Program-made: the position numbers and the translations under genes
DNA from: a virus
Taxonomy: Duplodnaviria; Caudoviricetes
Length of the DNA stretch: 64,000 nt
Virus record (IMG/VR): IMGVR_UViG_3300021399_000099
Coordinates: 128,001-192,000 of that record
Reading direction: 5' to 3' (one strand)
In this document: positions 10,079-54,575 of the stretch, piece by piece
How positions within the stretch are numbered: the first letter of the stretch is position 1
Layout: the number at the start of each line of letters is the position of its first letter
Notes under the pieces: model-generated
Database searches by the model: none
Seen by the model: the letters and a program-made list of their open reading frames with translations, nothing else
Told to the model about the DNA's origin: nothing

Positions 10079-11008
10079 TTACTTAAGGTTGTCAATCCCG
10101 TTTTCGGCGTACCATTCGCGGAATTTCTTGTATTCCTCCTCGCCTACTTTGTTGATGGCCACCTGCAAGTCGTTGTAATCGCAGTGCTTAATCTTGACGA
10201 TAATCCGCTTGCCGCGAGGGTCCTTGATAGGAACGACCGGTCTGGCTACAATGCCTTCCTCAAGATAGTCGGGGTTTGAAACATCCGGCACGAGGGTCTT
10301 AAATCCCTTCTTAACCATCTCTTCTGCCTCCTCAATGGTCATCTGGCCAATGTAGGGTGCAACTGTGAGACCAAGTTTCTCGGCATAGTCGTTCAGCATA
10401 TCAATGGGAACCCACCAACCCTGCACACAGATGTCGAAGATGGAGAAACGGTTCTTATCCTTGTCATAGTTGCCGCCAGACTGAATCTTCTTACCGAAGA
10501 ACTCACCATAGATATAAACGGGAACCTCTTCTACGTGGATAACGCCATACTGTGGGTGTTCTCTGTATTCGTTGATGGTGATGGGGTTCGGGTCAGGGTC
10601 ACCAGCAGAAGAATCATACAAAAGAATCTGGTTCTTATCATTCATTACAGGAGCAAACTTAGCACTCTCAGGCGGGAACAGCTCAGCAAGAATGGGCTTA
10701 ATCCTTTCAATCTCAGCATCAAGGAATGCCTTCTGCCCGGTACCTACGATGTCAGCATTGTCAGTCTTGCCACCAGGGAAACATTCTCCAGTGGAAGGGA
10801 AATAAACAATCTTACTATTGGTACCGTCTATTTTACTAAAACAATCAAACTTCAAACCCTTGATGTATTCCATAAAATCGTCAGAGTATTCATCGACAAT
10901 GATTTTATTCATAAACACCTTCCAGTCCTTGTTAGGAAGAGTGACCTTTCCAAGATTTTGATATCTTTTATACAAAGTGTTGATTTTTGTGTAAGTTTGT
11001 GTCTTCAT
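10079..11008 (-). CDS. RNA ligase (Rnl2-like nucleotidyltransferase)
   Basis: KIDGTN (motif I), YGEFFG, FDI, EGIVARP, KIK. Confidence 0.8.
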   Translation of the reverse strand: MKTQTYTKINTLYKRYQNLGKVTLPNKDWKVFMNKIIVDEYSDDFMEYIKGLKFDCFSKIDGTNSKIVYFPSTGECFPGGKTDNADIVGTGQKAFLDAEIERIKPILAELFPPESAKFAPVMNDKNQILLYDSSAGDPDPNPITINEYREHPQYGVIHVEEVPVYIYGEFFGKKIQSGGNYDKDKNRFSIFDICVQGWWVPIDMLNDYAEKLGLTVAPYIGQMTIEEAEEMVKKGFKTLVPDVSNPDYLEEGIVARPVVPIKDPRGKRIIVKIKHCDYNDLQVAINKVGEEEYKKFREWYAENGIDNLK

Positions 11009-13079: not shown

Positions 13080-14303
13080 ATGGGAAAATACTTAACACTA
13101 TTTGGCACACATAGTTCTTACGAGGAATATATTGACGGACCGGATGCAATACTGCCGAACGTATCTTATTGTAAAGATGTAAAGGATGTACATTTTAATC
13201 CTGTACATCATTATTCTAAAGATTATTTAACTTTTAAAGTTATATCTGCAGGAACCATTGTTTGGAAAGCACAGAATTCCGCTTATACGACAACAATCGA
13301 ATATAGTTTAGATAGTGGGGAAACCTGGGCCGAGATTACTTCAAATACGGGGGATTCAGCACCTAGTATCTCTGTAAGTGCTGGAGATGTTGTTCAATTT
13401 AAAGGAGATAATGCAACTTATAGTTCCGGTTTTTCAAGGTGTAATTCTTTCAGTGCCTCGACAGCGAAGTTTGAAGCCGAAGGTAATATTATGTCACTTA
13501 TAGATAGTACTGGATATACAACAGCTACAACTCTTGCAAATAGTTATACATTCTATTATTTATTCCGTGAATGTACTGGTTTAACTTCTGCTGAAAATCT
13601 TGTATTACCTGCTACTACATTGGCAAACAATTGTTATCAAAATATGTTCATTCGTTGTACTGGGTTAACATCAGCACCTGAACTTCCTGCAACAACATTA
13701 GCTAATAATTGTTATGATGGTATGTTCTTTGGTTGTACAGGGCTAACATCAGCACCGGAACTTCCTGCTACTACATTGGCAACACAGTGTTATAATAATA
13801 TGTTCTATGGTTGTACAAGCCTCACAACAGCGCCCGAACTTCCTGCTACTACATTGGCAAACAATTGTTATCAAAGTATGTTCAAAGGTTGTACAAATTT
13901 AACTTCAGCGCCAGAACTTCCAACAACTACATTAGCACGTGCTTGTTATAATAGTATGTTCGGTGATTGTACATCATTAACTAAAGCACCTGAACTTCCC
14001 GCTACTACATTGGCAAGTAGTTGTTATGCGGTTATGTTCCAAGGTTGTACATCTTTAACTACCGCACCTGAATTACCCGCTACTACATTGGCAGAGAATT
14101 GTTATAGATATATGTTCAATGGTTGTACAAGTTTAAATTATATCAAGTGTCTTGCAACAGATATCTCTGCAACTGGTTGTATAACTAATTGGGTGAATGG
14201 CGTTTCATCAACAGGTACCTTCGTAAAAGCCGCCTCTATGTCATCTTGGACAACTGGCGTAGATGGTGTTCCTACAAACTGGTCAGTACAAGACGCATCG
14301 TAA
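13080..14303 (+). CDS. BspA-like leucine-rich-repeat protein
   Basis: 24-aa repeats APELPATTLA..CY..MF.GCTSLT. Confidence 0.85.
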   Translation: MGKYLTLFGTHSSYEEYIDGPDAILPNVSYCKDVKDVHFNPVHHYSKDYLTFKVISAGTIVWKAQNSAYTTTIEYSLDSGETWAEITSNTGDSAPSISVSAGDVVQFKGDNATYSSGFSRCNSFSASTAKFEAEGNIMSLIDSTGYTTATTLANSYTFYYLFRECTGLTSAENLVLPATTLANNCYQNMFIRCTGLTSAPELPATTLANNCYDGMFFGCTGLTSAPELPATTLATQCYNNMFYGCTSLTTAPELPATTLANNCYQSMFKGCTNLTSAPELPTTTLARACYNSMFGDCTSLTKAPELPATTLASSCYAVMFQGCTSLTTAPELPATTLAENCYRYMFNGCTSLNYIKCLATDISATGCITNWVNGVSSTGTFVKAASMSSWTTGVDGVPTNWSVQDAS

Positions 14304-16838: not shown

Positions 16839-17597
16839 CTACAACTTTTCAAGGTCATCGTGAAGTTCTGCAATCCCGTCAGCCACCATAACATATCCAA
16901 ATTCTCTTAATATTGCTTCGGCGGTCGATAAATCATCCATCTGCACCTCGCTGGGCTTCCAAGAAGGATAGAGGGCTTTGAGCCAACCTATTAGTTTTTC
17001 CTTTTCCTCCCTGCTAATCAATCGTTCCGTTCTCCACCAATTTTGTACATATGACGCTTCGACAAGAATTGCAGCGATTCTGTTAAGATTGTTTATATCC
17101 TCCTCGCTCCACTCTTGCTTTGACTGAGGGCGGAGAGATTTTAATTTTTCAAGTATGCCATTTCGTGTAATGTTATATTTCGCAAGTTCTTCTTCTGGTA
17201 TCCAAGCCGTAAATCCCCATAGCATCTTCTCATCCTCCTCGCTCCACTCTGCAGGCTGCGGGTCAATAACATTGATATGCTTTTTCAGCCAATTGTCAAT
17301 CTGGTATTGAGTAATGCCAAAATGAACAACCCCATCGCGAATTGCCTCGTCTGAAATAACGGGCTTCTGCTCTTTCAGTCTTTCAAGATAAGCACGAATT
17401 GCAGGAACATCTTCTATTGCCACACAACTAGACCGGCCTTTATCCCAATCGTAACAGCAGCGGAGTATTATCTGTCTTATTCTCTCATCTTCGCTCTCCT
17501 TCAATTCAATGACAACCTTACCACCTTCAATTCTGGCTTCGTAACCTTCGGGAATTTCATACTCGTATCTCTTGGGTATATTTGTATTGTTATTCAT
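16839..17597 (-). CDS. hypothetical protein with EWSEED repeats
   Basis: N-terminal EIPEGY.ARIEG.KVIIE..ESEDE shared with 29429-30085. Confidence 0.7.
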   Translation of the reverse strand: MNNNTNIPKRYEYEIPEGYEARIEGGKVVIELKESEDERIRQIILRCCYDWDKGRSSCVAIEDVPAIRAYLERLKEQKPVISDEAIRDGVVHFGITQYQIDNWLKKHINVIDPQPAEWSEEDEKMLWGFTAWIPEEELAKYNITRNGILEKLKSLRPQSKQEWSEEDINNLNRIAAILVEASYVQNWWRTERLISREEKEKLIGWLKALYPSWKPSEVQMDDLSTAEAILREFGYVMVADGIAELHDDLEKL

Positions 17598-34434: not shown

Positions 34435-34507
34435 GTGCCAGATACAGGATTCGAACCCGCATATCAACGTTTTAGGGACGCCCGCTTTACCAATCAGCTA
34501 ATCTGGC
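34435..34507 (-). tRNA. putative amber suppressor tRNA (anticodon CUA)
   Basis: full cloverleaf; anticodon arm GGCGT-CCCTAAA-ACGTT; C33 also seen in this phage's Gly(UCC) and Arg(CCU) tRNAs. Confidence 0.7.
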
Positions 34508-38883: not shown

Positions 38884-39409
38884 TGCCCAAGATGGGAGTC
38901 GAACCCATACGGCCTTTCAGGCCAAGGGATTTTACGTACCACCATAGTTTTCGCTACCAAAACAACTTTGGACATACGGGTTGGATTTTCAAGGCTTTTA
39001 CACCCCCAGGTTGTTTTGTTTGTGGTCTGGACTCTATCTTAACCATATTGAAATCTAGCTAGATACCTACAATGTAACTATGTCGTAACTGTGTTTTCAT
39101 TTTACAGCTTGCTTCCATAATATCAAGCAACTCAGCAATTTCAACTTAGGTTCCTCCTGTATAGTCTCTACACACTGTCTATTATTAATCCAAATGCTTT
39201 CACATGCAATGCAGAAGTATTTTTCCATTTGGATTATTTTAACATTGGCTCGGTATTAGCATATTAGAATTATTTACTCAAGGGATTTTACAATCCTATT
39301 CCAACTTAGCTTTCACCGAATTAGAGAGGTTCTACATCCAAGGTTTCCCCTGGTGCAACCCAAATGCTTTTTGCAGAGTCCCTCGTGTCTACCATTTCAC
39401 CACTCGGGC
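38884..39409 (-). tRNA. tRNA-Leu(UAA) split by group I intron
   Basis: exons 39377-39409 and 38884-38934 join to AGGGA-CTTAAAA-TCCCT. Confidence 0.88.
38935..39376 (-). mobile_element. group I intron (442 nt, no ORF)
   Basis: follows exon U, ends in G; R element TAGAGACTA and S element AAGATAGAGTCC. Confidence 0.85.
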
Positions 39410-41573: not shown

Positions 41574-41691
41574 ATGTTAGTCCCCCATGTCGCTGGAGGA
41601 CAGCCCACGCCACTTTACCTATAAGCGGTAACTACGAACTCGATAACGGATTAGTCGCCTCCGTCGGATTTCTAATGTACACTCATCCGAG

Positions 41692-41812
41692 AGCCGGTAG
41701 CTGGATTCGAACCAGCGACCCACGGGTTAAAAGCCATTGAGAACGTTGCTGTTGGTTTCCATGCCTGGAAGCACTTCATATACGTTGCTCTACCTGACTG
41801 AGCTATACCGGC
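41692..41812 (-). ncRNA. tRNA-Lys(UUU) with 47-nt CAGCAA-module insert at 29/30
   Basis: removing the insert restores ACGGG-CTTTTAA-CCCGT. Confidence 0.72.
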
Positions 41813-41824
41813 AAAATATTGTTG

Positions 41825-44392: not shown

Positions 44393-44478
44393 CGGAGAGC
44401 GGAGGTGTCGAACCCCATACGTTTCACCGTACGAATAGTTTTCAAGACTACCTTCGGAGCCGTCCGAATTCACTCTCC
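44393..44478 (-). tRNA. tRNA-Ser(UGA)
   Basis: long variable arm. Confidence 0.82.
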
Positions 44479-45405
44479 AAGATTGTTTCGTTTTCTATAG
44501 TCAGACATTGCGTGTTTTCCAACCCCAAAATGTTTTGCTATACTTTTCCACGTTAGTCCAGTTTCCCTAAGTTTTATTACTTCGGCTTTTGAAATATTAT
44601 CAGTTTTTCTTTTTATATGTTCTTCTTTAATTTTTCTACCCTTTACCCACCCATTTTTAACATATTCTGCGAGGTCTTCCTTTTTTATTTTTAGGTTTTT
44701 TACGCCATTAGTAATCCAACATGTACCGTACTGTGAATTTTTAACACCAATTTGGTCGCCGTTTGCTCTGTGCGAATTTGACATCTTTTCTTTTGTTAAC
44801 TCGGAATGGTTTCTTCCCACCCAAACAGCTTTTAATTCCCCGTTTAAATATCTTTCATCATCAAGATTAACAGACATCGTATTGCCGCTCATATCATAAA
44901 CGGTTATTCTTCCTTTAGATTGATGAAGATACCTTTCTTGGTTATTTTTATATTCAGAGGTTTCAATAAGCTTATATTTTTCCTCTTCGGTGTCAAAAAC
45001 TGCGATTTTTCCTTTAGAAAAGGGAACATATTTTCCGGAAAGATAATCTTCATCATCCGGCTTAATCCTATAAAAAACACCATTTTCGTCTCTAACCAAG
45101 ATTGTTCCGGTGGTGACACCAAAATCACCACCAATTTTTAAGTTATAACAATTGGTATCCAAAACACAAGATTCGGTCACTACTTCATTTTCATATTCGG
45201 ATGCCTGCTCTCGTGTTTTAAAATATTTTAGGATTGTCTTTTTAAAATTTTCCTTACCAAACTGTCTATACGCCCTTTTCAATCTCCTTCCAGACCCCAT
45301 ATAGCCATCCTCAATGTCGTTTGTTGAGTGTATCCCAAAATAATAATTTCCGTTTAACTGGTTTTCAATCTTATAAAAATAATGATATTTGTAATCACGT
45401 TCCAT
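44470..45405 (-). CDS. GIY-YIG (Seg-like) homing endonuclease in tRNA array
   Basis: YFYKIEN..NGNYYFGIHS...GYMGSG, YNLKIGG, NUMOD-like repeats. Confidence 0.85.
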   Translation of the reverse strand: MERDYKYHYFYKIENQLNGNYYFGIHSTNDIEDGYMGSGRRLKRAYRQFGKENFKKTILKYFKTREQASEYENEVVTESCVLDTNCYNLKIGGDFGVTTGTILVRDENGVFYRIKPDDEDYLSGKYVPFSKGKIAVFDTEEEKYKLIETSEYKNNQERYLHQSKGRITVYDMSGNTMSVNLDDERYLNGELKAVWVGRNHSELTKEKMSNSHRANGDQIGVKNSQYGTCWITNGVKNLKIKKEDLAEYVKNGWVKGRKIKEEHIKRKTDNISKAEVIKLRETGLTWKSIAKHFGVGKHAMSDYRKRNNLGE

Positions 45406-45759: not shown

Positions 45760-45829
45760 ATAATGTCTGTTTCTTATCCTTTTCGGTCACCCTTAATAAG
45801 TGTTGAACAGACCTAAAGTCTCCCTAGTA

Positions 45830-45952
45830 TGCTGAGAGTTGGATTCGAACCAACGCGTGTCAATTCCGTCGCACCAGAATTGTGATAGCGGGCTTCCCCA
45901 TAGTTGCGATTCCGGGGTCCTCCGCTGTGTTCAGCCACTTCACTACCTCAGC
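45830..45952 (-). ncRNA. tRNA-like RNA with expanded anticodon and variable arms
   Basis: intact acceptor, D and T arms; loops TCGCA and TGCGA complementary. Confidence 0.6.
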
Positions 45953-46066
45953 CTTCGAGACCATATTTTTACCCGGCTGGTTAGACCGGTCCGACTTGTC
46001 AATGAACTTGCTTTATTAATATACAAAAACTGTGCCAAAAACACAAATTTTTTGCAAAAAATTTTG

Positions 46067-46147
46067 TCCGGATGGCTGGATTCGAACCAGCGAGGCGTTT
46101 GCGGGGCCTTATGAGAGCCCTCCGATACCAGCTTCGGGCACATCCGG
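46067..46147 (-). tRNA. tRNA with CAU anticodon (Met/Ile2) and long variable arm
   Basis: GGGCT-CTCATAA-GGCCC. Confidence 0.72.
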
Positions 46148-47587: not shown

Positions 47588-47662
47588 CTCTTTTTATTTT
47601 TGCTATATATAAATATATACGAACTTGGAAAAAAAATCAAGGTTTTAATTTTTTTTTACCTG

Positions 47663-47747
47663 CAAGAGTGGGAGGATTCGAACCCCCGAGGACATTACTC
47701 CTTCTGGTTTTGGAGACCAGTGCCATCAACCACTCGGCCACACTCTT
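47663..47747 (-). tRNA. tRNA-Trp(CCA) with long variable arm
   Basis: CTGGT-CTCCAAA-ACCAG. Confidence 0.82.
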
Positions 47748-47831: not shown

Positions 47832-48302
47832 TTATCTTCTTGCCTTATAGTCGGCCATCGTAGTTGATAGCGGGCAGAGCGTCTTCCATCTACATTCAAA
47901 TCCCTCTGACTCAACCCATCCTTTAGCCGCACTAAAGGCTACGTTAGACCCAGCATCCTCATCCGGACTAATGTCAATGTCAATATACTTAACAAAGATG
48001 CCAGAATCCCTCATTAACTTTGCTACATCAAGAGAAGCCATTGTTTCGTCCATCATTCTGTCAAAAATCTCAGACTTCTTATATCTTCTACTTCTCCAAG
48101 TCCTGGAAATAACGTGCGCCCCATGTCCATGCTCACCATCGCCACTGTCGTAAAGGGCGACAATTGTAGCAAAACAAGTGTGCCCGCCGTGGCATTGAGA
48201 GTCCGTACTAACCATAATCTGGATATTACGGTGTGTGTGGCAGTAGTTGCCTACATAAGTTACCAGGTCTATTTTCTCCCCATTAAATTTCTTGAACTCC
48301 AT
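47832..48302 (-). CDS. RNase H-like YkuK/DUF458 family protein
   Basis: VSTDSQ, GHGAH, RMMDE..SL, IDIDI, ADY. Confidence 0.75.
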   Translation of the reverse strand: MEFKKFNGEKIDLVTYVGNYCHTHRNIQIMVSTDSQCHGGHTCFATIVALYDSGDGEHGHGAHVISRTWRSRRYKKSEIFDRMMDETMASLDVAKLMRDSGIFVKYIDIDISPDEDAGSNVAFSAAKGWVESEGFECRWKTLCPLSTTMADYKARR

Positions 48303-49176: not shown

Positions 49177-49260
49177 TGGTGGCACTACCGGATTCGAACC
49201 GGTGTTTGGAATACTCCCCAGAGCCACAATCTGGTGCCTAACCTCTCGGCCAAGTGTCAC
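49177..49260 (-). tRNA. tRNA-His(GUG) with long variable arm
   Basis: loop TTGTGGC, CCA encoded. Confidence 0.8.
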
Positions 49261-51141: not shown

Positions 51142-51319
51142 CGGGGATAGCAGGGCTCGAACCTACAACCTATTGATTAAGACCCGATAAGAGGAATCGA
51201 ACCTCTGTTACCATGTGTCGTAAGACTAGGTGTCCTATACCACTAAACGATACCGAGTTGGTTAATTTCGGATAACCGCCCCGTTTCAGTCAATTGCTCT
51301 ACCATTGAGCTATATCCCC
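51142..51319 (-). tRNA. tRNA-Asn(GUU) with 106-nt intron containing nested tRNA-like domain
   Basis: exons rejoin to ATTGA-CTGTTAA-TCAAT; intron 51181-51286. Confidence 0.75.
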
Positions 51320-51327
51320 ATTGTTTG

Positions 51328-51411
51328 CGTTTGGTGCAGGATTCGAACCTACGGTGTTCTTCACACGGCACATTAACAGTGTGCTGCCTTAAACCACTCG
51401 GCCAACCAAAC
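51328..51411 (-). tRNA. tRNA-Asn(GUU) with long variable arm
   Basis: GCACA-CTGTTAA-TGTGC. Confidence 0.82.
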
Positions 51412-51418
51412 ATATTTG

Positions 51419-51497
51419 TCGCGAAGACTGGACTCGAACCAGCATCCCCCTGCCTCCTATGCAGGCCGCTTACAAAAACCAATTAGCGTACTTCGCG
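51419..51497 (-). tRNA. tRNA-Pro(AGG)
   Basis: CCTGC-ATAGGAG-GCAGG. Confidence 0.75.
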
Positions 51498-51509
51498 TTA
51501 TATTTTATG

Positions 51510-51581
51510 AGCCCCTTGTCGGAATCGAACCAACATCTAGGCGTTACGAATGCCTTATAATAGCCGTTATACTAAAAGGGC
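51510..51581 (-). tRNA. tRNA-Thr(CGU)
   Basis: loop TTCGTAA. Confidence 0.8.
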
Positions 51582-51684
51582 ATATAATGATAACCGTAGT
51601 TGGGTTTGTCAAAGTACCTTTATCTGCCATATTCTCAAGAGCCCAACCTTGTGGCATTGATTATGTACATGCAGTTATCATTTG

Positions 51685-51757
51685 TGGCGGTAACCGGAGT
51701 CGAACCGATATCTGGTGGGTCAAAGCCACCCATACTCAGCCTTTGTACGATACCGCT
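51685..51757 (-). tRNA. tRNA-Gln(UUG)
   Basis: GGTGG-CTTTGAC-CCACC. Confidence 0.8.
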
Positions 51758-51758
51758 G

Positions 51759-51832
51759 TGGACACATGTGGGATTCGAACCCCTCCTTCACAGTGCAAGT
51801 GTGAGGTGCTACCAAGTTACACTACACGGCCC
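51759..51832 (-). tRNA. tRNA-Ala(UGC)
   Basis: TCACA-CTTGCAC-TGTGA. Confidence 0.75.
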
Positions 51833-51936
51833 ATATTTGTGGAACTTACGGATTCGAACCGCCTGTTATCGGGTCTTCCCTCGTTATTTCACCCCGTGAG
51901 CATCCGCCCCCAACTGGCTTTAAGTCCCATATTTTG

Positions 51937-52031
51937 TGGGAGAGGTGAGACTCGAACTCACTTACCGCGAAGGCCAATACGGCTATTTGGTGACGCGGGT
52001 TGGTTTTACAGACCAGTGCCGTTACTCTCCC
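51937..52031 (-). tRNA. D-armless tRNA-Tyr(GUA) with giant variable arm, copy 2
   Basis: same 95-nt architecture as 51034-51128 with compensatory changes. Confidence 0.7.
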
Positions 52032-52039
52032 ATAATTTG

Positions 52040-52224
52040 TGGCTCCGAAGAGGATTCGAACCTCCATTCAGACAGTAGCCTTCCGGATTGGCACTTGTCC
52101 CTGTGTTTATTCTTGCGCCCAACCTTTGGCAGCTCGCGACACTGTTGTTCCTCACTGTCAGGTAACCCCTATTACACACTTCCCTCACCATGCAAGGGCG
52201 ACTTTACCGTTTGTCTATCAAGCC
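52040..52224 (-). ncRNA. tRNA-like RNA with about 110-nt variable-region insert
   Basis: acceptor, D-arm and T-arm recognisable. Confidence 0.55.
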
Positions 52225-52231
52225 ATATTTG

Positions 52232-52411
52232 TACTCCTATCGGGAGTCGAACCCGAATCCCCGGACTGAGAATCCGGTCGCCTGAACCATTAGCAGATAG
52301 GAGCATATATTTCAGTATGTCAAAGAACATATTGGTACTGGGGACGGGACTCGAACCCGCATTTACCGACTTGAAAGGCCGATTACCTAAGACCAATTAG
52401 TAGACCCCAGC
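52232..52411 (-). tRNA. tRNA-Glu(CUC) 52232-52304 and tRNA-Glu(UUC) 52333-52411
   Basis: cloverleaves. Confidence 0.85.
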
Positions 52412-52417
52412 ATATTG

Positions 52418-52612
52418 TGGTGAGGGTAGGATTCGAACCTACAATAGCCAAATTAAAGGCAGCGAGTGTACGAGTTCGCTTTGCTCACCTACCACGCTCG
52501 TAACGTGGAATCACAAACTTATCTACATATCAATTATAGTTTCAATAAGATGTACGGTCAAATCTACCTCTATAATCTCAGTTAGCTTCGTCTGAAACTT
52601 TGCTGCCTCACC
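52418..52612 (-). ncRNA. Tyr-like tRNA with about 110-nt D-region insert
   Basis: GGTGAGG/CCTCACC acceptor, T-arm, loop ACTCGTACAC. Confidence 0.58.
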
Positions 52613-52649
52613 ATATATATCAATGAACTTTTATATCAATGAACTTTAG

Positions 52650-52723
52650 CGGTCCTGACCGGATTCGAACCGGCACCACGCACCGTGACAGGGTGGCATT
52701 GTAAACCATTCAACCACAGGACC
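52650..52723 (-). tRNA. tRNA-Asp(GUC)
   Basis: loop CTGTCAC. Confidence 0.85.
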
Positions 52724-52731
52724 AATATTTG

Positions 52732-52844
52732 TGGAGATAGATGGCATCGAACCATCACCCGTTATTTTTTCTCAGATTTGTACTCTGACCGAACTTGCAG
52801 CTTTCGCCTTGGGCCCGCACTCTGCCATATTGAGCTATATCCCC
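52732..52844 (-). ncRNA. Ala-acceptor (G3:U70) tRNA-like RNA without a normal anticodon arm
   Basis: GGGGATA/TATCTCC acceptor; multi-hairpin centre. Confidence 0.55.
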
Positions 52845-52852
52845 ATTTAATG

Positions 52853-53267
52853 TGCGTCCAATGGGACTCGAACCCATAACGCCTTACGGACCCCTCTGAT
52901 TAAAAGTCAGATGCGCTACCAATTGCGCCATGGACGCCTAATTTTCAAAGAACTTTTCTAATATATTACAAAAGCCATGCCAAACTTTTTCAGTTCTTAT
53001 AATTTTTTTGTCGGGACAGAAAGATTCGAACTTTCATTGCTACTGTATCAGAGTAGTATCCTAAGACCGTTTAGATGATGTCCCGTTATGTTTCAAATAA
53101 CTTTTGTGGTCCCGGTGGGATTCGAACCCACAACCCGACGGGTAAGAGCCGCCTACGCTAATCCAGTTGCGCCACGAGACCATATTTATTTGTGCCCCCG
53201 GTGGGACTCGAACCCACAATCACGCACCTTAAAAGGGTGGAGCTTTAACCAATTCAGCTACAAGGGC
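52853..53267 (-). tRNA. tRNA-Lys(UUU, long V arm) 52853-52937, Ile(GAU) 53011-53085, Lys(CUU) 53107-53181, Lys(UUU) 53193-53267
   Basis: cloverleaves; anticodons read directly. Confidence 0.85.
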
Positions 53268-53352
53268 TTTCCAAGAACCTATTTGCCGGCTTAATTTATT
53301 ACCTGTAACCGGCAGGCTCCATTTTCTTTCTTAGCCCTCGTATCTTGGAGAG

Positions 53353-53589
53353 CTAAAGATTGTATTTTCGTTTAAACTCTTTCATATCTATTTCTTCTTT
53401 TTTAACTTCCGTTCTTTTTCCGTTAATGACAACTTCAATGGGGAACTGTGATTCGTCCCAGAAATACTCTTCCGGCTTCACCTTTGTTCCGTCTTCAAAA
53501 AACAATTCACATTCTCCCCTTTCAATCATCTTCCTAACCATCAAGGTTGCAACATAAATTGCTTCTATTTTTTGTTCGTTGTCTGTCAT
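53353..53589 (-). CDS. hypothetical protein
   Basis: 78 aa behind sigma54-type motif 53601-53620. Confidence 0.6.
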   Translation of the reverse strand: MTDNEQKIEAIYVATLMVRKMIERGECELFFEDGTKVKPEEYFWDESQFPIEVVINGKRTEVKKEEIDMKEFKRKYNL

Positions 53590-53815
53590 ATTGTCTATAT
53601 TATCAAAAACCGTGCCAAACTTTACTTTTGAAACGGACTTTTTAATCCTTTCGTGTAAGGTATGTAGTAAAGTACTTGATTATCAGTCAAATTCTCGTAC
53701 CACTCGTCAAAGTACTTAAGAAACTTCTTATGTACGTTATACCTCCACTCGTTCCAAAGGTATTCTTTTAACTTATCGTTTTGCCCCGCTTTCCATAACT
53801 ATATTCTTTATTTCG

Positions 53816-54133
53816 AGCCCAGAGCCGGATTCGAACCGGCGAATGTCAGTTTTGCAGACTGATAGGTTAGACCACTTCCCCATCTGGGCATATTTTGTGG
53901 AGCGGACGGGGTTCGAACCCGCAACTCCATCCCTCATATAACTGAATGGCTTTTCCGTTTTTAAAGCTACCACCCCATTTTGTACCCCGGGCCGGAATCG
54001 AACCGACATCTTATGTTCCGTAGACACACGCTCTAATCCGTTGAGCTACCAGGGCATTTTTGTAGTCCCAATGCGAATCGAACGCATATCGTAGGAATCG
54101 GAATCCTAAATTCTTCCGTTAAACTATGGGACC
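53816..54133 (-). tRNA. tRNA-Cys(GCA) 53816-53889, atypical Ala-acceptor tRNA 53898-53976, Arg(ACG) 53983-54055, Arg(CCG) 54063-54133
   Basis: cloverleaves. Confidence 0.8.
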
Positions 54134-54314
54134 ATGGTAGCCGTGACTTTAATTACGCAGTTACACGGCACCCCTATCTCTGCGAGCAACCATTACGGTT
54201 TCTGTTAGGGTTATGTTGCTATCAACCCGTCAGGCCGTCGTCCCTGCTCTAGCGCTGCTTCCGCGACAGACACAATTTCTTCCCTATCTCAGTCTAAGGG
54301 GAACCTGACTATTG

Positions 54315-54389
54315 AGCCCTCAGTCGGATTCGAACCAACACTTTTACCATACCACAGTAATGTACTCAACCATTAAATACGATAAGGGC
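54315..54389 (-). tRNA. tRNA-Thr(GGU)
   Basis: TTACT-GTGGTAT-GGTAA. Confidence 0.75.
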
Positions 54390-54397
54390 TTAAAACG

Positions 54398-54575
54398 TAC
54401 CCCCGTGCAGATTCGAACTGCAATTAAGAGTTTAGGATTGGGTAGCGGGAATTGAACCACGCGACACACTGAGGAATTGCTTCCACCGGCTCTGACCACC
54501 TGAGCTATACCCGATAATTTGTTTCGGTAAATTACTCCGTGTAAGACTCTGGTCCTTCCATTGAACGACAGGGGC
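54398..54575 (-). tRNA. tRNA-Arg(UCU) with 107-nt intron containing nested tRNA-like domain
   Basis: exons rejoin to AGAGT-CTTCTAA-ACTCT; intron 54436-54542. Confidence 0.72.

Follow-up and report, generated by a model that had tools for sequence, protein, structure and literature searches.

To our knowledge, tRNA splicing is not known in bacteria and their viruses outside self-splicing group I introns. Here we consider two split tRNA genes, tRNA-Asn(GUU) and tRNA-Arg(UCU), in a 64,000-nucleotide stretch of DNA (below, the window) covering bases 128001-192000 of the linear 216,910-bp IMG/VR virus record IMGVR_UViG_3300021399_000099, whose CheckV completeness is 61%. Their inserts belong to a real, conserved and mobile class of introns in phage tRNA genes that contain no open reading frames (ORFs). 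Like the group I introns residing in anticodon loops of bacterial and phage tRNA genes, for example at position 34/35 of cyanobacterial tRNA-Leu(UAA), they are mobile and sporadic and have precise intron-less alleles. However, group I introns exceed 200 nt and are self-splicing, with a P1-P9 core, a terminal G and a U.G pair at the 5' site, features of which the window introns have none. In MALAT1-mascRNA and the plant mitochondrial t-elements, the ends of the RNA are set by RNase P and RNase Z, which an embedded tRNA look-alike attracts. The window introns are similar to MALAT1-mascRNA in having a structured A-rich element just upstream of the RNase P site, but MALAT1-mascRNA and the t-elements are eukaryotic or organellar and make RNA ends, not spliced products.

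The closest described elements are the "enigmatic" tRNA introns of the Lak megaphages (Devoto et al. 2019, PMC6784885). These introns are ORF-less, 80-115 nt long, reside in the anticodon loop, are present or absent in close relatives and have no Rfam match; one may encode a tRNA, and an intron-less allele shifted the boundary of the Thr intron by one base (PMC6784885). Our literature searches produced no other paper on this intron class. In Table S6 of the same paper four introns are printed at position 37/38, as placed by tRNAscan in the eukaryotic mode. Working from the printed sequences and not the Lak genomes, we slid the "Tyr" boundaries two bases to the left and those of Phe, Thr and Gly one base. 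After the slide, all four introns start with (A/U)UA and contain a 4-5-bp helix from position +4, an A-rich linker and a final unpaired C. The leaders are 27, 27 and 28 nt long, and 31 nt in Thr. The acceptor and T stems of the tRNA-like domains add up to 13 bp, as 8+5 or 7+6. The slide restores A37 in all four tRNAs, whereas the printed Phe, Thr and "Tyr" tRNAs have T37, Gly having A37 already. The Lak "tRNA-Tyr(GTA)", which has a class I body, is probably a tRNA-Asn(GUU) split at 35/36, as in locus L087 below. This published Lak tRNA thus receives corrected boundaries and, probably, a corrected identity (Asn, not Tyr).

On this reading of the printed sequences, the window introns share with the Lak introns the ORF-less insertion into the anticodon loop, the initial NNA, the helix at +4, the 27-28-nt leader, the 13-bp stack and the terminal C. 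In place of the candidate pseudoknot with conserved CGG/CCGAAA of the window, each Lak leader has a plain hairpin of 4-5 bp and AT-rich linkers. The Lak sites are 35/36 and 36/37, unlike 34/35 in the window, and the Lak hosts are megaphages, whereas the window comes from a different, smaller rumen phage. Inspection of the printed Lak sequences revealed no homology to the window introns, nothing being common beyond NNA and the final C. The window class may be described as following the Lak plan, its hairpin leader being replaced by a pseudoknot, a likely kinship of plan rather than demonstrated descent. The first-pass annotation of the window had treated the inserts as a conserved intron class; this class has been seen before, since the Lak introns share the plan.

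Two split tRNA genes

Both genes are located on the minus strand, and each intron consists of a leader and a tRNA-like domain.

51142-51319, minus strand: split tRNA-Asn(GUU); exon 1 at 51287-51319, intron at 51181-51286 (106 nt), exon 2 at 51142-51180
51260-51286, minus strand: leader of the Asn intron; AAA and a candidate H-type pseudoknot with S1 CGG/CCG, S2 GGTTA/TAACC and loop 3 AAAT
51181-51258, minus strand: tRNA-like domain of the Asn intron; 8-bp acceptor ACTCGGTA/TATCGGGT, tRNA-Glu-like D arm, degenerate anticodon arm, 5-bp T stem
54397-54575, minus strand: split tRNA-Arg(UCU); exon 1 at 54543-54575, intron at 54436-54542 (107 nt), exon 2 at 54397-54435
54516-54542, minus strand: leader of the Arg intron; ACA and a candidate pseudoknot with S1 CGG/CCG, S2 AATTT/AAATT and loop 3 AAAC
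54436-54515, minus strand: tRNA-like domain of the Arg intron; 8-bp acceptor ATCGGGTA/TACCCAAT with one C.A mismatch, canonical D arm, T arm

The anticodon loop is broken after G34 in the Asn gene (CUG/UUAA, the slash marking the break) and after U34 in the Arg gene (CUU/CUAA). Both inserts start with A(A/C)ACGG(G/A)G and end with TC. Each contains a 5-bp hairpin of its own sequence (GGTTA/TAACC in Asn, AATTT/AAATT in Arg), with CCGAAA in both loops. The pattern ACGGRG-N7-CCGAAA has two exact copies in the 64-kb window, both within the two inserts. Removal of the inserts yields the loops CUGUUAA and CUUCUAA, and ARAGORN without the intron option calls the resulting sequences tRNA-Asn(gtt) and tRNA-Arg(tct), so that the 7-nt loops with GUU and UCU are restored, as had been expected. 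The whole split Asn gene (51142-51319) is spanned by the Rfam tRNA model with 57.2 bits under relaxed filters. Bacterial-mode tRNA finders miss such split genes, which makes phage tRNA sets and calls of codon reassignment incomplete.

The inner domains are themselves recognized as tRNA-like: ARAGORN reports "tRNA-???" at 51181-51257, inside the Asn intron, and there is an Rfam tRNA match at 54437-54514, inside the Arg intron. In the latter, a GCAA-capped hairpin replaces the anticodon arm. The last base of each intron is an unpaired C, at 51181 in Asn and at 54436 in Arg. The two inner domains differ, the Asn intron having a tRNA-Glu-like body and the Arg intron the body of another tRNA type; therefore the conserved unit is the leader plus a generic tRNA shape.

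Intron family and its fold

The family search consisted of pattern scans of IMG/VR and the JGI metagenomes, followed by the covariance model R1. The window introns score 119.6 bits (Asn) and 85.8 bits (Arg) with this model. With the seven further copies listed here, they form a family of nine members in five contexts.

Locus L080: intron of tRNA-Asn, near-identical to the window Asn intron
Loci L087 and L138: introns of two unrelated tRNA-Asn genes
Loci L053, L080 and L136: introns of tRNA-Lys(UUU)
Locus L064: free-standing copy between small phage-like ORFs

A covariance-model search of this kind was suggested in the first-pass annotation; the ACGG/CCGAAA module is indeed present in the homologues, with S1 weakened in the Lys type. 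The suggestion that the two window inserts represent one conserved class also holds, as every element of the plan is found at its expected coordinates and all nine members share the fold.

The 5' part of the common plan comprises NNA, CGG, two purines and one more base, a 5-nt strand, N-CCGAAA-N, the complementary 5-nt strand and 0-1 nt. The 3' part is the tRNA-like domain with its 8-bp acceptor and 5-bp T stem, followed by one unpaired C. The acceptor and T stems form a 13-bp stack (8+5) in all eight intronic members, whereas the free-standing copy has a normal 7-bp acceptor and thus a 12-bp stack (7+5). This suggests that the module has an independent life and that the extra pair is an adaptation to the role of an intron.

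In the alignment of the nine members, 96.3% of the cells assigned to stems are paired, and both sides change in 12 of the 21 pairs. The observed covariation is reached in none of 500 shuffles, and the slid controls are nowhere near it. The hairpin, acceptor and T stems covary; in S2, pairing is 100% and three of the five pairs show covariation. By sequence, S1 and the hairpin can form a classical H-type pseudoknot, the pairing in S1 being unproven. In a model of this fold, the AAA of CCGAAA would be the loop lying in the minor groove of the 3-bp stem S1. The pseudoknot module is the best-conserved part of the intron and is nearly identical in L064, L087 and L138, whereas the tRNA-like domain varies. 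In the Lys-type copies S1 and the AAA are mutated.

The insertion point is 34/35 in the window genes and 35/36 in L087, L138 and the three Lys genes (CUGU/.../UAA and CUUU/.../UAA), the latter placement being unambiguous except for a 1-nt choice in L138. Thus the class is not bound to position 34/35, as initially thought: its relatives occupy 35/36, and the Lak introns 35/36 or 36/37. The intron always starts 3 nt ahead of CGG (AGG in the Lys type) and always ends with the unpaired C after the 8-bp acceptor, and the leader is 27-28 nt long in all family members. The cut sites are set by the intron and not by the anticodon position, so that a simple structural rule predicts both of them from the intron alone. 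This intron-centred boundary rule is new, as are the 13-bp stack with the terminal C, the constant leader length, the free-standing copy and the covariation of the exons.

Boundaries and intron-less alleles

The boundaries of the inserts are proven independently of the prediction. A relative of the window phage, L053, was found on a 154-kb contig via a protein adjoining the tRNA array (75% identical). Its tRNA genes follow the same order as in the window, and both Arg-UCU (13407-13483) and Asn-GUU (17211-17285) are uninterrupted. In the metagenome contig L080, the Asn intron is present and Arg-UCU (1656-1727) is uninterrupted. Contigs of the DNA run X6 skip precisely 51181-51286 (106 nt) and 54436-54542 (107 nt), and the 107-nt skip is seen in contigs of runs X16, X18 and X6. 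The presence and absence of the two inserts in relatives is exact and independent; therefore the inserts have been gained or lost independently, to the base, like mobile introns.

Natural variants from the sequencing runs fit the predicted fold. In run X17 the Arg intron carries C2>U in the leader and C30>U, which converts the only acceptor mismatch, C.A, to U-A. In the Asn intron, the variant U41>C converts U.G to C-G.

Likely function of the host tRNAs

All seven genes spliced in silico are canonical tRNAs, and no family member has damaged exons. Comparison of the Arg gene in the window, which has the intron, with its intron-less counterpart in L080 reveals two fully compensated pairs in the anticodon stem, 28-42 (G-C and A-U) and 29-41 (A-U and G-C). 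Each of these pairs has one base on either side of the intron. The Lys alleles of L053 and L136, both with introns, differ by compensated changes in one anticodon-stem pair and two T-stem pairs.

Among the Arg codons of 100 long ORFs AGA ranks first, with 31%, and the split Arg-UCU gene is the sole UCU gene of the array. G002, the record of L136, is a complete genome of 167,986 bp that has terminal repeats; the split Lys-UUU gene is its only tRNA-Lys among 18 tRNAs, the others being otherwise a U34 set. Because the exons are intact, the stem changes are compensated and the split genes are sole for their anticodon in two records, this evidence, taken from gene sequences, argues for removal of the introns, although it is no proof. 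The apparent maintenance of introns in genes that are sole for their anticodon implies a splicing route that is still to be found in the bacterial world.

Candidate splicing mechanism

The overall best explanation, to which we give about even chances, is that the intron fold sets two hydrolytic cuts and the phage Rnl2-like ligase seals the exons. We infer that splicing does occur, and likewise the acting enzymes and the chemistry of the ends. The intron would be a self-contained RNA module consisting of NNA, a compact H-type pseudoknot, a tRNA look-alike with the 13-bp stack and the unpaired C, and the pre-tRNA would most likely be cut at two sites defined by this fold.

The 3' cut would directly follow the unpaired C, the point at which a tRNA without CCA is cleaved by RNase Z. 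The 3' splice site coincides exactly with the RNase Z-type site of the inner domain. The tRNA genes of the window phage lack CCA, and a CCA-adding enzyme is among the phage's own gene products; the 3' ends of its tRNAs thus normally arise by an RNase Z-type cut after the discriminator.

A shape-reading hydrolytic nuclease would make the 5' cut ahead of the first leader helix, at a distance of 3 nt, which places it 27-28 nt upstream of the tRNA-like domain; this might perhaps be RNase P, a phage enzyme or the second active site of an RNase Z dimer. RNase P acting at the inner tRNA cannot make this cut, because the 5' splice site lies 27-28 nt upstream of the RNase P site of the inner domain. 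The fixed leader length over two unrelated leader designs, together with the poor sequence conservation of the Lak introns, points to a shape-reading protein or ribonucleoprotein enzyme, which would measure from the tRNA-like domain or from the first helix. Since no ribozyme or intron family matches and the Lak introns retain the plan with almost none of the sequence, recognition of shape is favoured over an RNA catalytic core. For the 5' cut, the machinery that processes tRNA ends, engaged a second time, seems to us a better candidate than a ribozyme.

The two cuts would leave 3'-OH and 5'-phosphate ends. The anticodon stem would keep the halves together, and the nick would be sealed by the phage Rnl2-like ligase to produce functional tRNA-Asn and tRNA-Arg. 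The candidate enzyme is the following.

10079-11008, minus strand: phage RNA ligase (PF09414, weakly Rnl2-like), putative joiner of the exons

The ligase with likeness to Rnl2 mentioned in the first-pass annotation thus exists. Besides this Rnl2-like ligase, the record of the window (G000) encodes a small P-loop kinase (AAA_33), and G002 likewise has a ligase of the PF09414 family. No genes for RtcB, 2H enzymes or RNase Z were found in the phage records searched, the record of the window being 61% complete; at the same completeness, this record yielded no EndA splicing endonuclease (PF01974). The ligase, with no RtcB, EndA or 2H enzyme found, fits the 3'-OH/5'-phosphate chemistry. Phages are known to ligate tRNA halves broken in the anticodon loop, by T4 Pnkp/Rnl1 and by nick sealing of the Rnl2 family. 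However, the T4 pathway repairs damage without removing an insert, and the window phage has a weakly Rnl2-like ligase and a small kinase, no recognisable Pnkp having been found in it.

As a more tentative proposal, an uncharacterised protein-based type of tRNA splicing may exist in bacteria and phages, in which the 13-bp mimic and the 27-28-nt leader position both sites for ordinary end-processing nucleases, such as the two active sites of the RNase Z dimer, and an Rnl2-type ligase closes the loop. The module may then spread at the level of RNA, by ligation into anticodons cut by nucleases and copying back into DNA. The natural series of variants, with pseudoknot or hairpin leaders, insertion at 34/35, 35/36 or 36/37 and a free-standing copy, makes the route testable in vitro.

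Several observations weigh against the two-cut explanation. We know of no enzyme whose cleavage site lies upstream of a helix by 3 nt, or of a tRNA-like domain by 27-28 nt, and exon 1 would keep the leader if RNase P acted on the inner domain. S1 (CGG/CCG) shows no covariation, being invariant in six of the nine members and having lost one pair in the three Lys-type copies. The ligase matches the Rnl2 model weakly, with 27 bits at a cut-off of 197. Absent genes prove little in a record that is just 61% complete. Finally, a second GUU tRNA gene adjoins the split Asn gene, so that the latter could be dispensable.

The same applies to the RNA runs, for which the evidence consists of assembled contigs only; the small word shares of these runs are no evidence of expression. 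The exact 107-nt skip occurs in two metatranscriptome runs, X16 and X18, covered 39x and 17.6x, and the intron interior is uncovered there. However, the joined form is also present in the DNA run X6, which confounds the skip as evidence of splicing, and the X18 contig carries a second rearrangement and so comes from a relative. Thus the RNA skip contigs may stem from intron-less relatives. Unspliced Asn and Arg genes are also present in RNA-run contigs. These contigs neither show nor exclude splicing.

Alternative explanations

The intron might be a small self-cleaving or self-splicing RNA, in which the pseudoknot on the tRNA-like scaffold cuts the 5' site, perhaps both sites, by transesterification, and the host RtcB or a kinase/phosphatase with a ligase joins the exons. 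This would agree with the strong conservation of the pseudoknot and with the 5' site fixed 3 nt from it. Moreover, the record contains the gene for the small AAA_33 kinase, RtcB is present in Bacteroidota hosts (control rows), and processing of phage tRNAs by ribozymes resembling that of hepatitis delta virus (HDV) is known (PMC10879173). However, there is no match to Rfam ribozyme families even at E=10, the first base of the intron is A or U rather than the G1 of HDV-like ribozymes, and the P1/P2/P3 order does not accommodate the sequence. Neither RtcB nor a 2H enzyme turned up in the phage records searched. The plain 4-5-bp hairpin of unrelated sequence that replaces the pseudoknot in the Lak introns, and the mutated S1 and AAA of the Lys-type copies, are changes neither of which a catalytic core would tolerate. 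We consider self-cleavage unlikely. An equally unlikely reading is that the insert is a selfish or useful RNA module that is never removed; the split genes would then be dead or mere carriers, and the product would be the inner tRNA-like RNA freed by RNase P and RNase Z. Indeed, the L064 copy stands free between protein genes, so the module can live outside a tRNA; the unspliced form occurs in RNA-run contigs, the split Asn gene has the second GUU gene beside it, and splicing is inferred rather than demonstrated. Against this, the exons are undecayed in all members, the stem changes are compensated across the insert, and two records, including a complete genome, have no gene for the anticodon concerned other than the split one. 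Precise intron-less alleles are also common, as predicted by gain and loss of introns.

It is also conceivable, but still less likely, that the split pre-tRNA is a regulated reserve, stored with an exonuclease-resistant leader, escaping the anticodon nucleases of the host and finished late or on demand. Positions 34/35 and 35/36 of tRNA-Asn, tRNA-Lys and tRNA-Arg(UCU), where the introns are inserted, are classic targets of anticodon nucleases such as colicin E5, PrrC and MazF-mt9. By analogy with the MALAT1 triple helix, an RNase P cut would leave exon 1 with the pseudoknot and its A-rich loop as its 3' end. However, relatives thrive without the introns, and a reserve would be an addition to the two-cut explanation rather than an alternative to it.

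A number of more specific candidates were rejected. Group I and group II introns, excluded already in the first-pass annotation, are ruled out, within the reach of the tools, by the absence of Rfam ribozyme and intron matches, the size of about 106 nt, C instead of G at the intron end, and the Asn exon 1 ending in G. In particular, RF00028 matches neither gene at E up to 0.1, and raising the limit to 10 for the Asn gene gave no match either. The same annotation noted no evident bulge-helix-bulge motif, the mark of protein-spliced tRNA introns in archaea and eukaryotes, and by inspection no 4-bp helix is possible between the bases flanking the two sites; as said above, no EndA gene was found. 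The HDV-like theta ribozymes of gut phages have a nested double pseudoknot (P1/P2/P3/P1.1) with a catalytic C and cleave 5' of G1, at a tRNA 3' end; here there is no HDV-family Rfam match (theta may be outside Rfam), the first base is A or U, and by eye nothing 3' of the hairpin is complementary to bases 1-7. The hammerhead, hatchet and pistol folds have no Rfam match and do not fit by eye. Complements of A-N-ACGGRG, which could make an external guide RNA for RNase P, are scattered chance matches in the 217-kb record, none with an NCCA-like tail in the array. TTAAC in the Asn intron is complementary to G/UUAA and could splint the exon junction, but the Arg intron has no equivalent, and we take this to be a coincidence. 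An RNase H-like gene (PF04308) in the array, at 47832-48302, was considered as a dedicated nuclease; it is present in G003, but G002, a complete genome with the intron, does not have it. Transposition of DNA of the IS200/IS605 type was rejected because the target sequence is not constant and there are no similar end hairpins.

Other loci with the leader motif

Most matches in two pattern searches of the collections were due to chance, upstream of ordinary tRNAs or within transfer-messenger RNAs (tmRNAs). Three groups of loci stand apart. A conserved tRNA-like RNA of about 230 nt was observed at L052:8810-9040 and some 30 similar IMG/VR loci (L001, L006-L008, L011 and others). It has the acceptor GTCCCTG/TGGGGAC and a T arm, and holds AAAGGCTG/AAACGGAG-CCTTCAA-CCGAAA-AGGG, where the leader motif follows CTG; no matching exon 2 was found for it. 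A family of 159-nt class II-like tRNA genes from freshwater phages (L049:10357-10515, L055, L068, L072, L084, L096, L102, L119) contains CTT/AAACGGGG-N7-CCGAAA within an insert of about 94 nt that has no inner tRNA-like domain. At E<=0.001, R1 does not match the motif loci of the L052 and L049/L055 kinds, the sole match in L049 (9509-9602) being another tRNA. In L113 and L114, the pseudoknot CGG-AGT-GTCGC-G-CCGAAA-A-GCGAC directly precedes the 3' tRNA-like end of an apparent phage tmRNA, about 75 nt ahead of the end GGCTCCACCA. Several bacterial tmRNAs also fit the leader pattern.

The tRNA array and its other genes

The tRNA array occupies 34.4-55.0 kb of the window on the minus strand and contains 47 tRNA genes and a tmRNA as predicted by ARAGORN. 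A search of the INPHARED phage collection produced no close relative of the window phage, only matches at the tRNA level. DNA near-identical to the window was found in gut metagenomes of goat, cattle and sheep. Apart from the two split genes, the array contains the following unusual genes and matches.

51327-51411, minus strand: class II-bodied tRNA of 85 nt with the GUU (Asn) anticodon, a Ser/Leu-like D arm (GCCGAGTGGTTTAAGGC) and a long variable arm
52852-52937, 47662-47747, 46066-46147 and 49178-49259, minus strand: tRNA-Lys(UUU), Trp, Met and His genes, respectively, of 82-86 nt
52412-52648, minus strand: gene of about 200 nt in which a tRNA acceptor (GGTGAGG/CCTCACC) and a T arm enclose a large unparsed insert
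52036-52232, 52725-52850, 41685-41820, 45825-45960 and 54132-54316, minus strand: tRNA-framed genes with inserts of 40-120 nt and no R1 match
44393-44479, minus strand: Rfam tRNA-Sec match within the array, 49.5 bits at a cut-off of 47
39019-39386, minus strand: sub-threshold Rfam group I intron match over the full model length, 31 bits at a cut-off of 50, towards the lower-coordinate end of the array

The 85-nt class II tRNA with GUU is kept in two relatives, at L053:17120-17204 and L080:6894-6978. Because enzymes of the SerRS type ignore the anticodon, this tRNA might insert another amino acid at Asn codons. The tRNA-Lys(UUU) of the 82-86-nt set has a variable region of about 18 nt despite its class I type and scores 68 bits with the Rfam model. 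The gene at 52412-52648 occupies the slot of the intron-bearing tRNA-Lys in L053 and L080, and is covered 72x by a contig of the RNA run X16.

At G000:C1:212779-213183, a 158-aa AAA_33 kinase has likeness of the weakest level to seryl-tRNA(Sec) kinase (E 6.5e-5, far under the cut-off). A suppressor-type tRNA with CUA is located at 34435-34507 of the window. The tRNA genes of G002, at 79.6-107.2 kb, encode nearly exclusively U34 species, together with suppressor-type tRNAs with UCA and UUA.

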